Assembly (NCBI RefSeq): GCF_988242995.1
Contig: NZ_OZ547043.1
Strand: one strand, 5' to 3'
Length of the DNA: 64,000 nucleotides
Below the pieces are notes generated by a model. It was given only the letters and a program-made list of their open reading frames with translations, was not told where the DNA came from and made no database searches. Positions within the stretch are counted from its first letter, which is position 1. Each line of letters opens with the position of its first letter. The position numbers and the translations under genes were made by a program. Below are positions 46,969 through 56,200 of this stretch, one piece after another.

Positions 46969-47180
46969 TCATTGGGATTATGCCGCAGAAACGTTGTATG
47001 CAATAACGTTCTGCGGTTGGCTGATGCACTTTCGAGAGTGCATGTATTGAATTATTTCCAGCTATTATCGATTTTACGTATTTTTTGCATGAGAGAATTT
47101 GTACCTCCTCCCAACAACGACCTTCCATGACTTTCCGGACTTCTGTGGGCCAGCGGACGATGCTGCCCTCGGATGTTGTG

Positions 47181-48038
47181 CTAATTGGGTGATGACAAAT
47201 CCTGTGTATGGGTGTTTCCCTTTGTGCGTGCGTTGATGCTGGTAACGGTGAACGTCATGATGAACACAACCGCGAATAAGACGACAATCGTCGGAGCTGG
47301 TGCACTGTCGATAAAAAAGGACAACCAGACACCAGTCATTGACACTATTACCGATATGCCAATCGCCAGTAGGAGCGCAATATGAAAGCGTTGTGTCAGG
47401 AGTACCGCAATGGCGCCAGGCGCAATGAGCAGAGAAATGGAGAGAATGATACCTACCGCTTTCAGCGTCGCCACAATGGTCAGAGAGACCATGCACAGCA
47501 GCCCATAATGCAGACATCTCGTATGCAAACCGCTTACCTGCGCCTGTTGATAATCAAAGCTGAACAGCAAAAAATCCCGCCATTTTACGCTAATAACAAG
47601 TGTAACCAGCCCGGCAATAATCACCGTCTGGATTATATCGCCGATGGTTACCCCGAGCATGTCGCCGAAAAGAATATGGTCAAGATGTACGTCTGGTTTG
47701 ACTGCAATATACAAGATCAGACCTGCGGCAAACATGCCAGAAAAAACAATCCCCATCACTGTATCTTGCTTGATTCGGCTGTTGTCTTTCAGGTATCCCG
47801 TCGCCACCGCGCAGAATACTCCGGCGACGAATGCCCCTGTAGCCAGAGGTAACCCCAGAATCCAGGCAAGCACGATGCCAGGAAAAACCGCATGACTCAT
47901 CGCGTCACCCATCAGTGCCCAACCTTTCAGGACCAGAAAGACCGACAGCAGCGCACAGGGTATGGAAACTACCAGTGAAATCAGCAGTGCGTGACTCATA
48001 AAGGTGAACTGCAGTGGCTCCAGTAATAATGCCATCAT
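47181..48038 (-). CDS. sitD: Mn/Fe ABC transporter permease SitD
   Basis: 285-aa polytopic membrane ORF, last gene of a four-gene metal ABC operon. Confidence 0.85.
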   Translation of the reverse strand: MMALLLEPLQFTFMSHALLISLVVSIPCALLSVFLVLKGWALMGDAMSHAVFPGIVLAWILGLPLATGAFVAGVFCAVATGYLKDNSRIKQDTVMGIVFSGMFAAGLILYIAVKPDVHLDHILFGDMLGVTIGDIIQTVIIAGLVTLVISVKWRDFLLFSFDYQQAQVSGLHTRCLHYGLLCMVSLTIVATLKAVGIILSISLLIAPGAIAVLLTQRFHIALLLAIGISVIVSMTGVWLSFFIDSAPAPTIVVLFAVVFIMTFTVTSINARTKGNTHTQDLSSPN

Positions 48039-48892
48039 GAGCGATCCTCCAGCGCTTTATGCGCACGCCGACGATTTGCCAAAAGCCCATGGGTGGGCGC
48101 AAATACAAATGCTAAAAGAAACAGCAGTGTCTGCGCCACCACGATGATTCCACCTGTCGCGCCGTCCAGAAAGTAACTGACCCACGCGCCGAGGAAACTG
48201 GTTACACTGCCAATAGTTACAGCAATTATGAGCAGGCGGGGAAAACGATCGGTTAACAACCATGCTGTTGCACCGGGAGTCACCACCAGACAGATCACCA
48301 GAAAGGCACCAACCGTTTGCAGCGCCGCAACGGTCGAAACCGACAGCAGGGTGAAGAAGAGGATTTTTAATCTGCCCGGATGCAATCCAATAGCACGAGC
48401 GTGATTCTCGTCGAAAAAGGTCACCATAAGATCTTTCCATTTGAAAAAAAGCACGATGATCGAGAGAATGCCAATGATAGTGAGTTGCAGGATATCCGCC
48501 GGATCGATTGCCAGAATATTGCCCAGGACGATGGTCTGAATGTTCACGGATGTCGGGTTCAATGACACCATAAACAGCCCCAGGCCAAAAAAGGAGGAGA
48601 AGATCAGGCCGATGATGGCATCTTCTTTTAAGCGAGTGCGTTGGTTAAGAAACAGCATGCTGCCCGCTGCCAGTCCGCCGGAAAAGAAGGCTCCCAGAGA
48701 AAACGGAAGCCCCAGCATATATGCCCCCGCAACACCCGGGACAATAGAGTGCGACAGCGCATCGCCAATCAGCGACCAGCCTTTTAGCATCAGATAGCAT
48801 GACAGGAAAGCGCAGAGACCGCCGACCATCGCCGAGACCCACATCGCATTGAGCATATATTCATAGCTGAAGGGTTCCAGTAGCACGTTCAT
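48035..48892 (-). CDS. sitC: Mn/Fe ABC transporter permease SitC
   Basis: 285-aa membrane ORF paralogous to the downstream permease. Confidence 0.85.
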
Positions 48893-49716
48893 CTTGCTTC
48901 CCCCTGCACCGCTGACGGTCGATGTGCCACAAAAGGGTGTTCATCGTCAGTAATAATGCTTTCTTCCGAGCCGTTAAGTGTGACATGGCGCAGTACGCCG
49001 CTAAAAGCCAGCTCCAGGTTCTCGGCTGTAAAAGTGGTGTCTGTCGGCCCGCTTGCCAGGACGGTGCCTTTGACCATGACCGTATAATCGCAAAATGTCG
49101 TGACTGAGCCGAGATTGTGCGTTGAGACAAGCATCGTCTTGCCTTCCGCGCGTAACTCCCTCAACAGGCTGATGATTTTCGCTTCGGTTTTCACATCAAC
49201 GCCCGTAAAAGGTTCATCCAGCAGGATCACATCACCCTGCTGTGCAATCGCTCTCGCCAGAAAGACGCGTTTCTTTTGTCCACCGGAAAGCTCGCCGATT
49301 TGTCGATGGCGAAAATCCACCATATCGACACGTTCCAGCGCATCGGTGACAATCTGACGATCCCTCTTTTTGGCTATACGCAACATACCCATGTGCCCAT
49401 AGCGGCCCATCATCACCACATCTTCCACTAGTACAGGAAATGACCAGTCAACCTCTTCTGACTGAGGGACGTAGGCAACCAGGTTTTTCTGTAGCGCCTG
49501 TCGCGTGGGAATACCCAGAACAGATATCTTTCCGCTGGTCAGACGCACAAATCCCATAATCGCTTTAAACAACGTCGATTTTCCGGAACCGTTTACCCCA
49601 ACCAGAGCGGCAATAGATCCACTTGGTACTGTGAAGGATGCATCGCGCAGTGCTGTGTGCCCGTTACGCCAGGTGACAGTAACATCATTAACGACAATGC
49701 CCGCAGATTGCATCAT
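48889..49716 (-). CDS. sitB: Mn/Fe ABC transporter ATP-binding protein SitB
   Basis: Walker [13 protein letters not shown] signature LSGGQKKR, Walker [12 protein letters not shown]. Confidence 0.9.
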
Positions 49717-50630
49717 TATTTCTCCCTTTTCCCGGCTTTAATTCCCTGTACCAGCGTACTGGTAGTAACCTTCAGAAGGTCGATATACGTAGGTACCGGG
49801 CCGTTTTCTGTGCTCAGGGAATCGACATAGAGTACACCGCCGTAGTGCGCGCCGGTTTCACGCGCAACCTGACGCGCTGGTTTATCGGAAATCGTACTCT
49901 CGCTAAAGACTGCCGGGATATGATTTTTCTTCACCATATCAACAACCTTACGTACCTGCTGCGGCGTGCCTTGTTGATCGGCATTAATCGGCCACAGATA
50001 AAGCTCTTTTAGCCCCAAATCGCGTGCGAGATAAGAAAAAGCCCCTTCACTGGTGACCATCCATCGCTGATTCTCAGGGAGTTCAGCAATCTGCTTACGC
50101 AGGGGGGCAAGGGTTTGGGTAATCTTGGCTTTATAAGTATCGGCATTACGTTGGTAGGTTTGTGCATTTGCCGGATCGTATTTTATCAACGCATCACGAA
50201 TATTATCGACGTAAATCAGAGCATTATCTGGCGACATCCAGGCATGGGGGTTAGGTTTGCCCTCATAGGGGCCTTCAGTGATCCCTACTGGCGTCACACC
50301 CGAAGAGACAATTACTTCTGGAACCCCATTAAGATGCTGGTAAAAGCGTTGGAACCACAATTCCAGATTCATACCATTGGCGAGAATCAGTTGTGCCCCC
50401 TGCGCACGTTTAATATCGCCAGGGGTAGGCTGATACTCATGAATTTCTGCACCGGGCTTGGTTATGGATGAGACTTCTGCAGCATCTCCAGCCACGTTTT
50501 TGGCCATATCTGCGATGATGGTAAATGTTGTAATGACCTTGAATTTTTCAGTTGCACTCGCCTGAAATGCGATCGAGCAGGTGAGGGCGAGGCACCCCAA
50601 GAGCATGGTTACTTTTTTTATTGAGTACAT
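49716..50630 (-). CDS. sitA: Periplasmic Mn/Fe-binding protein SitA
   Basis: 304-aa ORF with signal peptide; metal-binding SBP family; first gene of operon. Confidence 0.85.
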
Positions 50631-50663
50631 AATTTAGTACCTATAGTGAGCAAAATTAGAACA

Positions 50664-50683
50664 AACATAGCAACGGCTATGTT
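50664..50683. promoter_or_regulatory. MntR operator-like palindrome upstream of sitA
   Basis: AACATAGCaacgGCTATGTT, the same palindrome type as the mntH MntR box as I recall. Confidence 0.6.
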
Positions 50684-50706
50684 TTATAGCACAACCTATA
50701 CAAAAT

Positions 50707-50725
50707 GAAAATGATTATCATTAGC
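50707..50725. promoter_or_regulatory. Fur box upstream of sitA
   Basis: GAAAATGATTATCATTAGC matches 16 of 19 positions of the Fur consensus GATAATGATAATCATTATC. Confidence 0.65.
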
Positions 50726-51216
50726 AGCTTTGGGGCCCAAAACAGGGATTAGGTTGTTTCCTGCTGGCGACGCGTTATTGAGGAAAAAAGTAAGGCAGCT
50801 AGTAGGCTTTGAAATGACTTGATGAGGAAAATTGTTGATGGCAAAAATGGGGCAAAGCGCTGCAAAAGGGGCAAAAAAGGGGCAAAAAAAGAGTGGGTTA
50901 TCGTAGCTTATTGTTGTCGCTGATGATATTTAACACATTGAAAAATAAGTAAAATACTTATGAGTCAGAGAGTTGTGATTTTTGCCCTTACTTGTTCAGG
51001 TTGTATTGTTCTTTCTTACTAAATTCTTGATTTTGCGACATTTAAAAGCGACTCAATTCGTTATATGGCATCAGAAGAGTATGCGTCATGCCGGAACGCC
51101 CAGCATAAGAAATCTGATATAAAAACTGTGGCGTGTATGGTACGGATTAGAGGGGAAAATGTCAGCACATTTGCGAAATGAATCAAAAAGCCCGCAGGAA
51201 TGTGCGGGCGTTAGTG

Positions 51217-51732
<516 letters not shown>

Positions 51733-51791
51733 TTAGATCAAAGGAGGAAGAATAAGCAGAAAAAGCCCGCCATAACAGCGGGCAGGAGGAT

Positions 51792-52910
51792 TTAGAACTG
51801 ATAAACCAGACCTAAAGCGACAATATCATCGGTAGAGATGCCGTTGGCAGCGTAGAAGCTGTCATCTTCATCCAACAGGTTGATTTTATAGTCAACATAA
51901 GTGGACATGTTTTTATTGAAATAGTAAGTCGCGCCAACATCGGCGTATTTAACCAGATCTTTATCACCGTCGGTACCGACCAAATCCTTGCCTTTAGACA
52001 TCAGGAAAGAGACTGCCGGACGCAGCCCAAAATCGAACTGATACTGCGCAGTAACTTCAAAGTTCTGGGTTTTGTTGGCAATCGTATTTGTTGAATCACC
52101 GTAAGGTGTCATGTTACGCGTTTCAGAATACATGGTCGCCAGGTAGATATTGTTAGCATCGTATTTTGCCCCGGCAGTCCAGGCATCTGCCTTATCGCCT
52201 TTTGCGGTAGAGAATTCAGCCTGCTGGTTAGTGCGATCGGAACTGGTATAGGCGGCACCAAAACTCATGCCCATACCTAAGTCGTAGGTAGTAGAGATGC
52301 CAAGACCGTCGCCATTGGCGTTCTTAATGTTTCGATCACCACCGTTTGCGGTACCTTCTTGCTCATGGGTGACCTGGTTTTCATTCGCACCCTGGTACTG
52401 TAACGCAAAATTCAGACCATCAACCAGACCGAAGAAATCAGTATTACGATAGGTTGCTACGCCATTGGCTCGACCGGTCATATAGTTATCGGCTTTGGTA
52501 TAAGAGTCACCACCGAATTCCGGTAGCATATCGGTCCAGCCTTCGATGTCGTACATTACGCCATAATTACGACCATAGTCGAATGAACCCAGGTCACCAA
52601 ATTTCAGACCGGCAAAAGCAAGACGAGTCCAGGAATCACCTTTATCACCTTCAGAGCCATTAGCCTGCACGTTATATTCCCACTGGCCATACCCAACCAG
52701 TTGATCCGTGATTTGCGTTTCACCCTTAAAACCAAAACGCACATAAGTTTGATCACCATCACTATTGGTATTATCAGAAAAATAATGCAGGCCATCAACT
52801 TTGCCATACAGATCTAATTTGTTGCCGTCTTTATTATAAACTTCGGCTGCATGTGCAGCACCTGCGGCGAGCAGGGCAGGAATTAAAAGTGCCAGTACTT
52901 TGCTTTTCAT
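51792..52910 (-). CDS. ompN: Outer membrane porin OmpN
   Basis: Signal peptide [21 protein letters not shown], porin beta-barrel ending ...VYQF; K-12 order uspF-ompN. Confidence 0.9.
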
Positions 52911-53138
52911 TGAATAAATCCTTTAGTTATTTTATTTGCCTTTTCATCCCCATTTTGGGGAGTGAAAGCATCCTAAAGGAGAAGTTCAGTTAGCCGATAA
53001 ATATCATTTGTTACGCCTTAAGTAAAACCTTAATCAAATAATTCTTCTGAAATGATAATAAGTCTGGTGAATGTATTGAAGATAATACATACAAAATAAA
53101 AATTATACTTTTAATTTGCTATACGTTATTCTGCGCGG

Positions 53139-53248
53139 GTTATATGCCTTTATTGTCACAGATTTTATTTTCTGTTGGGCCATTGCGTTGCTACTGATTT
53201 TCCAACAAATAATGAGACAAGCCCGAACAGTCGTTCGGGCTTTTTTTT
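53139..53248 (+). ncRNA. micC: MicC small regulatory RNA
   Basis: GTTATATGCCTTTATTGTCACAGATTTTATTTTCTGTTGGGCCATTG... ending in hairpin gcccgaacagtcgttcgggc plus T-run; matches K-12 micC from memory; between ompN and ydbK. Confidence 0.8.
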
Positions 53249-53276
53249 AGAATTGGATAATCCTTATCCAGTGCAT

Positions 53277-56200
53277 TTAATCGGTGTTGCTTTTTTCCGC
53301 TTTTCCGGCCATTTGTGCCAGGAAGTCATAGCGTTTTTGCAAATCAGCTGCAGCATCTTTCCATAACTGTTCTGCCACTTCTGGCTGCTGCGAATTCAGA
53401 CGACGGAAACGCTGCTCGTGAAGTAACGTTTCTTCCAGTGCTTCTGACGGCGGGCGTGAATCCAGTGCCAGCGGCAGTTTGCCTTCATCGGCTCGACGTG
53501 GATCGAAGCGATATAGCGGCCAGAAGCCGGTGGCAGTGAGTTGGCGCATCTGGTCGTGGCTGAGTGCCAGATCGTAACCATGCTCTTCACACGGGCTATA
53601 AGCAATGATCAGCGATGGCCCCGGATACGCTTCCGCTTCCTGAATCGCTTTCACCGTCTGGTTCAGCTGCGCGCCGAGAGAAATCTGCGCCACATAAACA
53701 TGACCGTACATCATCATACTGACGCCAAGATCTTTACGCGCTTTACGTTTGCCGTGCTCGCCAAACTTAGTCACCGCGCCAAGCGGCGTGGCTTTTGACG
53801 CCTGACCACCGGTATTGGAATAGCATTGCGTATCCAGCACCAGAATGTTGACGTTTTCCGTCAAACTCAATACATGATCCAGACCGCCAAAGCCGATATC
53901 GTAAGCCCAGCCGTCGCCACCAATCAGCCAGATTGATTTTTCCACCAGTGCATCTGCGTCACGTAGCAGTTCATGTGCTTCGGCAACATCGTTGAGTTGC
54001 TGGCGTAAAGCTGCGACCTGTTCTCGACGAACCTCTGGCGTGGCGTCTGATTTCAACGCAGTCAGTAATTCCGCCGGGATTTTATCGGCAAATTGATCCA
54101 GCAGACGCAGCACGCGGACACGGTGTTGATCGACCGTCAGGCGGAAACCAAGGCCAAATTCGGCATTATCTTCAAATAGAGAGTTCGCCCATGCCGGCCC
54201 GCGACCGTTGGTATCGGTGGTATACGGTGTAGAGGGCAGGTTACCGCCATAAATTGAAGAACAGCCGGTGGCGTTAGCGATCAACATCCGGTCGCCATAG
54301 AGCTGAGTCAGCAATTTAATATACGGCGTCTCGCCACAACCGGAGCAAGCACCGGAATATTCAAACAGCGGTGTAATCAGCTGCGATGTACGAATATCAA
54401 TACGCTCCAGTTTGCTACGGTCGATTTCTGGCAGGTTGAGGAAGAAATCGTAATTGATTTTCTCTTCTTCGACATGTTCCAGCCGCGACATCATATTGAT
54501 GGCTTTAATCTCTGGATTCTGACGGTCTTTCGCCGGGCAAACTTCGACGCACAGGTTACAACCGGTGCAATCTTCCGGAGCCACCTGCAAGACATATTTC
54601 TGCCCGCGCATATCACGCGATTTCACATCCAGCGAATGCAGGCTGGCAGGGGCGTTTTCCATCGCTTCAGGCGGCACCACTTTTGCGCGAATAGCTGAGT
54701 GTGGGCAAGCGGCGACGCAGTGGTTACATTGGGTACAGAGTTCCTCTTTCCAGATGGGGATCTCTTCGGCGATATTGCGTTTTTCCCAGCGCGTGGTGCC
54801 CATCGGCCAGGTGCCGTCTGGCGGCAGCGCCGAAACGGGGAGGGCATCACCAAGCCCGGCGAGCATCGCCGCGGTTACGGTTTTCACGAAATCAGGGGCG
54901 GCATCGGAAACCACTGGCGGTCGATTGGCGCTGTGCGGATTAACCGGCTGCAGCGGAACTTCTTCTACGGATTCACGTGCCAGCGCCAGAGCCTGCCAGT
55001 TGCGTTCCACCAGATCCTGACCTTTGCTACTGTAACTTTTGGCAATCGCACCCTGCAATTCTGCGAGGGCGCTATCGCCAGGCAGAATTTGCGTAAGATG
55101 GAAAAAAGCCATCTGCATGACGGTATTAATACGGGCCGCCAGGCCACATTCGCGGGCGATTTTCGCCGCGTTAATCACATAGAAGCGCGCTTTTTTCTGG
55201 TTTAACACGGCCTGAACTTCTTGCGGCAAGCGCGACCACACTTCATCTGCGCTGTACGGCGTGTTGAGCAGGAAAATGCCGCAAGGTTTTAAACGCTCAG
55301 CCATCTGATATTTATCGATAAACTGCAACTGGTGGCAGCCAACAAAATCAGCCTGGGAAATGAGATAAGCGGAACGAATCGGCTGTTCGCTCACGCGAAG
55401 GTGAGAAACCGTCAGGCCGCCCGCCTTTTTGGAGTCGTAAACAAAATAGCCCTGTGCGTACCACGGCGTGGAATTACCGATAATCTTGATATTGTTTTTG
55501 GTCGCGGAAACGCTGCCATCGCTACCAAGGCCATAAAACAAGGCTTCAAGTTTCGCCGAGTTTGGCAGGGTGTTTTCCGGCAACGGCAGTGACAGATTGG
55601 TCACATCATCGTAAATACCAACCGTAAAGCGCGCTTTCGGTTTAGCCGCGTTGAGCTCGGCAAATACCGCCAGTACACAGTCCGGGCCAAATTCTTTGGA
55701 TGAAAGACCATAGCGCCCACCAATGACACGGGGCAGGGTTTCGCGCTCGCCATTATTAAAGGCTTCTGCCAGTGCGGTCATCACATCCAGATAGAGCGGT
55801 TCAGCCTGGGCACCGGGTTCTTTGGTTCTGTCCAGTACCGCCACGCTGCGTACGGATCCCGGCAGAGCTTGTAGCAAGTGTTTGGCGGAGAAGGGACGGT
55901 ACAGGCGAACTTTCAGCACGCCGACTTTTTCGCCACGGGTTAGCAATTCATCAACCACTTCTTCACAGGTGCCAATGGCAGAGCCCATCAGGATAATCAC
56001 CCGTTCCGCTTGCGGATGCCCGTAATACTCAAACGGCTGATACTGACGACCTGTCGCGGCAGAGAAATCATTCATCGCCTGTTCAACATGGTCGTAAACT
56101 GCGTTGTACCACGGGTTGGTGGCTTCACGTGACTGGAAATAGGTGTCCGGGTTAGCCGAGGTACCACGAATCACCGGATGCTCCGGATTCAGCGCGCGGG

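Follow-up and report, generated by a model that had tools for sequence, protein, structure and literature searches.

Candidate arm-type sites for the integrase IntR in a tandem repeat at the outer edge of a Rac-type prophage attachment site

The 64,000-nucleotide stretch of contig NZ_OZ547043.1 (RefSeq assembly GCF_988242995.1) analysed here, hereafter the window, carries a tandem repeat array on the plus strand at 50840–50890, and we consider it quite probable from comparative evidence that this array comprises the arm-type sites at which the integrase IntR would bind the P arm (distal to int) of a Rac-type attP. This arm now forms the phage half of attR. The proposal rests on the position of the array in an att arm, the occurrence of the same motif on both arms, the arm-binding domain of IntR and the retention of this architecture in relatives, together with the repeat structure and conservation of the array itself. 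We infer by analogy with lambda Int that IntR binds the array and requires it for recombination. This reading would turn an unexplained repeat, at times mis-annotated as a hypothetical protein, into a defined boundary, namely the outer edge of the Rac-type attP. The array would be a known kind of element, a part of a phage attachment site, that is apparently undescribed for the PF12167/IntBPP-1 subgroup of integrases. No description of arm-type sites for Rac/IntR, 933W/wrbA or DUF3596 was found in the searchable literature, where absence is not proof, and no mention of arm repeats was found by term searches in Liu et al. (2015; PMC4632033) and its supplement, which treat the shared att sequence and XisR binding.

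The letters at 50838–50906 read gatGGCAAAAATGGGGCAAAGCGCTGCAAAAGGGGCAAAAAAGGGGCAAAAAAAGAGTGGGTTATCGTAG. The initial annotation had described three adjacent motif copies at 50849–50890, and GGGGCAAA does occur on the plus strand at 50849, 50868 and 50879, but this was an undercount, as the array contains four in-register units of 11-bp period arranged 2+2. The three GGGGCAAA copies fall within 42 bp and are half of the six present in the whole window on both strands, for which shuffling gives an expectation of 3.1. The units, all on the plus strand, are a degenerate first one (tGGCAAAAAT, 50840–50848), GGGGCAAAGCG (50849–50859), GGGGCAAAAAA (50868–50878) and GGGGCAAAAAAA (50879–50890), and the second and third are separated by a linker, CTGCAAAA (50860–50867), that holds an off-register GCAAAA. 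The C of GGGGC falls at 50842, 50853, 50872 and 50883 in the four units (spacing 11/19/11). Tandem Repeats Finder returned a period of 11 with 4.8 copies at 50840–50888 and a perfect 2.4-copy stretch at 50864–50889, and a repeat search also recovered the two pairs of units as copies of one another (17 nt, 30 bp apart). Five phased A-tracts, starting at 50843, 50854, 50864, 50873 and 50884 with a period of ~10–11 bp, run through the array, a series of four or more A-tracts at the helical repeat being characteristic of intrinsically curved DNA. An Rfam scan of 47000–55000 at a permissive threshold gave no match in the sitA–uspF intergenic region, its one match being MicC at 53136–53256, and a promoter and terminator scan scored only the uspF terminator and an MntR-box palindrome as hairpins, with none in the array; a known RNA or terminator as the source of the array was discarded on these two scans.

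The array is non-coding in location, as initially described, and lies between the start of sitA (50630, minus strand) and the stop of uspF (51217, minus strand). A search of 5,426 complete E. coli genomes divides this intergenic region into three modules: the first (50631 to about 50838) travels with sitA, the second (50839–50991) occurs in K-12 as the rightmost part of the Rac prophage, and the third (50992–51216) is found in nearly all genomes and is the annotated ttcA 5′ end in prophage-free strains. The sequence shared with K-12 Rac and with every other Rac-type prophage starts at 50839 regardless of the left-hand cargo, and it identifies 50839–50991 (plus strand) as the phage-derived arm of attR, that is, the attP P arm distal to int. 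Integration of Rac in the 5′ end of ttcA, with the same attR region, is described by Liu et al. (2015; PMC4632033). The 26-bp Rac att core, TTGTTCAGGTTGTATTGTTCTTTCTT, which is the identity segment common to attL and attR, occupies 50992–51017 on the plus strand, occurs once in the window and is annotated as the attachment site in the record of phage Rac-SA53. A second core (attL) was sought in the window and is absent from it; the window begins inside the prophage at recT/recE, and its left 47 kb are lambdoid prophage in which tail fibres follow at ~43–47 kb and sitDCBA is the last cargo. The near-identical genome FDAARGOS_497 has matching attL, intR and ttcA ~50 kb leftwards.

Several elements lie between the array and the first host gene. 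A conserved block between array and core holds an IHF-like site (50931–50943, minus strand), TTTCAATGTGTTA, with one mismatch to the IHF consensus WATCAANNNNTTR. A single inverted motif copy on the minus strand (50978–50987), ATTTTTGCCC, the reverse complement of GGGCAAAAAT, lies 4 bp away from the core. Most Rac arms have this copy, but those of O111:H8, cq9 and ETEC1703 carry an altered form, and it could reflect chance, a mimic of the replaced ttcA sequence or a core-proximal site. The ttcC-type remnant that the initial annotation had suspected does exist nearby, on the minus strand at 50988–51041 (ATG at 51041–51039, MSQNQEFSKKEQYNLNK and then a stop), and is the original ttcA 5′ end, cut off by the prophage insertion and truncated at the core. 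The array, however, lies outside this remnant, ~100 bp to its left, and a relationship to ttcA did not hold up, as prophage-free genomes with an uninterrupted ttcA match only 50992–51216. The first host gene beyond attR is uspF (51217–51651, minus strand), with a terminator hairpin at 51190–51209.

The conservation of the array was assessed in an alignment of twelve attR arms, whose left cargo includes sit, pinR-ydfK-ynaM, DUF1076 effectors, a DUF4376 protein and YkgJ. All twelve arms become alignable at the first array unit despite their different cargo, which places the outer boundary of the conserved attP at the array. Of the 51 array columns, 9 vary, compared with 45 of the 101 spacer columns between array and core (Fisher p = 0.001), and the mean pairwise identity is 0.94 for the array, 0.85 for the spacer and 0.99 for the core, making the array the best-conserved phage-arm part after the core. 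The variable array positions are mostly in the linker and at A-tract ends. Rac-type prophages occur in 1528 of the 5426 complete E. coli genomes (~28%). Counted as full-length, near-identical matches to a query with three consecutive GGGGCAAAAAA-type units instead of two, a +11-bp allele is found in 53 of ~1501 arm-bearing genomes (~3.5%), and ~96% keep the same unit count. This allele occurs on at least three arm haplotypes and cargo backgrounds (for example FORC_081, USMARC-49610 and PKF8), which indicates that slippage or gain of a unit recurs, though the count is essentially fixed.

The same motif is found on the other arm of the attachment site. In K-12 attL, 46 bp separate the core from aatGGGGCAAAttgGGGGCAAAcTTTGCAAC in the phage arm, and the motif copies, GGGGCAAAttgGGGGCAAAc with 11-bp spacing plus a degenerate TTTGCAAC, lie 47–74 bp beyond the core and end at the intR stop codon. 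A genome that carries sit and is syntenic with the window has exactly this P′-arm sequence beside intR. The contiguous Rac attP is represented by one 4.4-kb IMG/VR contig (L040), in the order array, ~100 bp, core, 46 bp, pair and intR, with both arrays in one orientation; the other integrase loci nearly all ended at the int stop or were attL junctions, and a search of phage DNA returned prophage-type records only. Within the 401-bp attP of this contig, GGGGCA occurs five times in the forward direction and never in reverse (0.10 expected; P about 9e-8), and the same strand distribution of 5 versus 0 holds for each of three attPs of ~400–460 bp (0.10–0.12 expected; P ~1e-7 each). In three contiguous attPs, 187–200 bp separate the innermost site of the distal arm from the first site on the int side. 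The int-proximal (P′) arm of Rac has a perfect IHF consensus (AATCAACAAATTA) immediately next to the core.

Two further observations concern these arms. The 9-mer TTATCGTAG (50898–50906) stands 7 bp past the P-arm array, and its reverse complement CTACGATAA directly follows the P′-arm array and overlaps the intR stop codon; considered as an extra site, these inverted 9-mers are poorly conserved in divergent arms, and chance alone would give ~0.3 such matches. In a lysogen, the first 8 ttcA codons and all the sequence upstream of them come from the phage P′ arm, and in K-12 attL two P′-arm GGGGCAAA sites lie ~24–51 bp upstream of the ttcA ATG, so that integrase binding could interfere with ttcA expression.

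IntR (411 aa) carries the Pfam domain Arm-DNA-bind_2 (PF12167) at residues 5–69 (E 4e-26), ahead of SAM-like and catalytic domains, and residues 1–75 form a three-stranded sheet and a long helix in an AlphaFold model (pLDDT 88.6). A PDB sequence search with IntR returned matches to the catalytic domain only, and a Foldseek search with the N-domain model returned no significant match. Integrases with PF12167 (DUF3596) are placed in the arm-binding ‘IntBPP-1’ subgroup of tyrosine recombinases, and the examples from BPP-1, an Stx2a phage and Gifsy-2 are called ‘putative integrases’ (Smyshlyaev et al., 2021; PMC8138268). IntR is 43–44% identical to Stx-phage integrases named as members of this subgroup. 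That study classifies the proteins; the (A/T)GGGGCA arrays would be the putative DNA partner of the PF12167 arm-binding domain, in an integrase subgroup that includes Shiga-toxin phages.

Relatives were found by tblastn of IntR against 50,697 phage records, and their att arms were read directly. PHB10 (Int 69% identical), whose core resembles the Rac core and whose arms are otherwise unalignable, has AGGGGCAAA three times plus GGGCAC in its P arm (AGGGGCAAAtttAGGGGCAAAAAtgcgaaatAGGGGCAAAAAAAGGGCAC) and AGGGGCATAAT-AGGGGCAAAAA before the int stop in its P′ arm (AGGGGCATAATAGGGGCAAAAA). The 933W-type phage phi367 (44%) has TGGGGC four times with a spacing of 11/20/11 in its P arm (TGGGGCgctatTGGGGCAAAgtgtggttgttTGGGGCAtattTGGGGCAAAAAA) and TGGGGCACGTC-TGGGGCACGGG in its P′ arm (TGGGGCACGTCTGGGGCACGGG). 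For VT1-Sakai (43%), the P arm (ATGGGGCATCAATGGGGCATGTATGGGACACTT) contains ATGGGGCATCA-ATGGGGCATGT-ATGGGACACTT and the P′ arm (ATGGGGCATACATGGGACACTT) contains ATGGGGCATAC-ATGGGACACTT; for the Yersinia phage vB_YenM_06.16-1 (42.5%), the corresponding sites are ATGGGGCAAGA-ATGGGGCAAAA in the P arm (ATGGGGCAAGAATGGGGCAAAA) and ATGGGGCATGG-GTGGGACATTT in the P′ arm (ATGGGGCATGGGTGGGACATTT). The Pseudomonas phage BR319a (31–34%), in which the sites flank a tRNA-3′-end core, has TGGGAACACTC-TGGGAACAAAC in its P arm (TGGGAACACTCTGGGAACAAAC) and TGGGAACAAAC-TGGGAACGAGG in its P′ arm (TGGGAACAAACTGGGAACGAGG). Each of the five relatives carries tandem sites with a spacing of ~11 bp on both of its arms, all pointing the same way and set in DNA that cannot otherwise be aligned, and their motif is (A/T)GGGGCA, or TGGGAAC in BR319a. 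The integrase alignment identifies the N-terminal domain as the best-conserved part of the IntR-related integrases; the motif is kept where this domain is similar and changed in the most divergent member, which is the pattern expected of arm-type sites. Beyond its TGGGAAC sites, the distal arm of BR319a also has many AAGGTAAT/ATTACC-type repeats in both orientations (positions 2360–2500 of locus L100, minus strand), which may be recognised by a further protein, for example an excisionase.

If IntR works in the manner of lambda Int, it would be a heterobivalent tyrosine recombinase, with an N-terminal domain that binds the (G)GGGCAAA units and C-terminal domains that bind the core ~100–150 bp away. 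IHF-type bending, together with the intrinsic bend of the phased A-tracts, would fold the arm back and deliver arm-bound integrase to the core at attR; with the matching pair beside intR at attL, the arm-bound integrase could bridge both ends for excision, and the same sites in attP would serve integration. The layout resembles that of lambda attP (P1, P2, P′1–P′3) in its short repeated motif unrelated to the core, its tandem sites ~10–11 bp apart beside the int stop codon on one arm, its further sites ~100–160 bp from the core on the other arm, its IHF-consensus sites between arm sites and core, and an integrase with a separate N-terminal arm-binding domain. In common with lambda-like arm sites, those proposed here lie less than ~200 bp from the core, are accompanied by an Int N-domain, consist of a non-core motif on both arms and have a layout that is retained in relatives.

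There are also differences from lambda. The motif here is (G)GGGCAAA, and the integrase carries PF12167, whereas that of lambda carries PF09003; the distal arm has four putative sites in a 2+2 arrangement, compared with two separated sites in lambda; and the Rac sites run directly into phased A-tracts, from which a strong intrinsic bend is predicted. The P-arm sites of lambda are inverted relative to its P′-arm sites, whereas here every site on either arm points the same way, and the lambda geometry is therefore not simply reproduced. Also to be weighed against a role as IntR sites, A-rich tandem units could attract Fis or H-NS or be purely bent DNA, and the existence of the three-unit allele means that the exact number of sites is under no absolute constraint.

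Among the alternatives, an array that is mainly intrinsically curved DNA, serving as an architectural bend in the intasome, as a place where H-NS or Fis nucleates to tune excision or the nearby sitA promoter, or as both, and not as a sequence-specific integrase site, appears unlikely to us. The 60 bp centred on 50865 are predicted to be the most curved in the 64-kb window (122 degrees; the mean is 26 and the 99.9th percentile 80) by a wedge-model calculation with the dinucleotide angles of Bolshoy et al. (1991), and A-tracts start every ~10–11 bp. In addition, H-NS is reported by Liu et al. (2015; PMC4632033) to control the excision of Rac only among nine K-12 prophages, and the array is a candidate site for this control. 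However, it is GGGGCA and not the A-tracts that is common to the relatives, as VT1-Sakai, phi367 and the Yersinia phage have few or no phased A-tracts, and the Rac P′-arm copies carry only A3. Because the relatives keep GGGGCA without phased A-tracts, curvature cannot be the primary constraint; it is compatible with, and probably additional to, an arm-site role.

A broader proposal, possible though doubtful at present, would combine a dual-purpose array, in which arm sites lie in pre-bent A-tracts and H-NS or Fis opposes IntR, with (A/T)GGGGCA as the arm code of the whole IntBPP-1/PF12167 subgroup. If true, the pre-bent arm would replace a host bending factor between the arm sites, and competition of H-NS (possibly Fis) with IntR at the array could explain why Rac alone among the nine K-12 prophages is under H-NS control. 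The motif would also be shared by Stx1 and Stx2 converting phages and offer a simple sequence rule to delimit attP sites.

It is very improbable that the array consists of sites for the excisionase XisR (YdaQ), in the manner of the tandem X1/X1.5/X2 sites of the lambda P arm, although tandem direct repeats on the int-distal arm are placed where lambda Xis binds. According to Liu et al. (2015; PMC4632033), XisR shifts a 294-bp AttR fragment, which includes the array, but does not shift the 291-bp negative-control AttM. When the published primers were mapped onto the K-12 sequence, AttM was found to contain the entire array and to end one base before the core. Both EMSA probes of that study contain the array, and since AttM has all of it and is unshifted, the array alone is not an XisR site. 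Moreover, the motif is also present on the P′ arm beside int, whereas Xis sites would be expected on one arm.

The suggestion in the initial annotation of a slipped-strand repeat or gene remnant, extended here to any functionless contingency repeat or decaying gene or pseudogene, retains hardly any credibility: a copy-number comparison did reveal the recurrent one-unit polymorphism, and some annotation pipelines call small ORFs across the array, but the reading is largely refuted by a conservation above that of the surroundings, with the count constant in the great majority of genomes, and by the motif copies on the second arm and in distant relatives, and the array neither aligns to ttcA nor has a conserved ORF across it. 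ORFs do exist across the array at 50832–50906 and 50819–50923. In some genomes RefSeq/PGAP lists ‘hypothetical proteins’ of 41–57 aa there (L089 314–439, L091 241–396 and L094 241–414), and as these calls use three frames and starts, they are probably spurious; the +11-bp allele also shifts the frame. A coding small ORF was rejected on the inconsistency of the frames between genomes, in agreement with the earlier judgement that it is not a gene.

The IntR reading of the array also bears on the cargo beside it. The sitABCD segment (47181–50838; genes 47181–50630, with sitA the first gene at 49716–50630, minus strand) is carried as cargo at the extreme right of a Rac-type lambdoid prophage of ~50 kb, with the tail-fibre genes to its left and the attP arm to its right. 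It joins the conserved arm at 50839, and this arrangement of sit plus arm occurs in 494 of 5426 complete E. coli genomes. Its location 208 bp inside an apparently intact attR makes sitABCD potentially mobilisable by IntR/XisR excision. On the ColV-type plasmid NZ_CP070072.1, the sitA upstream region is 83% identical and continues as ATGGCAAAGCAAAAATAATGTAGGTTATTGGCAAG and then IS1 (L103 605–650); the plasmid sequence looks like a decayed, mostly deleted array with its following sequence, hinting that the plasmid sit was captured from the end of a Rac-type prophage.

Candidate regulatory elements near sitA lie outside the array. The sit genes are regulated by Mn and Fe, and the region upstream of sitA contains fitting elements, a perfect palindrome, AAACATAGCAACGGCTATGTTT (MntR-box-like, 50663–50684), and GAAAATGATTATCATT (Fur-box-like, 50707–50722). 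The native ttcA upstream region (51041–51180, minus strand) now faces sitA (50630), on the same strand, across the ttcC remnant, the core and the array; no terminator-like hairpin was found between this orphaned region and sitA, and read-through from it into sitABCD is conceivable. Farther right, the MicC sRNA is located at 53136–53256 (Rfam RF00121, 124 bits) between ompN and nifJ/ydbK, as in K-12. The record ON032529.1, ‘Salmonella phage SPF_0923’, is 99% identical across sitA–attR and runs on into uspF, ompN and nifJ, and it therefore holds an E. coli-type chromosomal flank and not only phage DNA.
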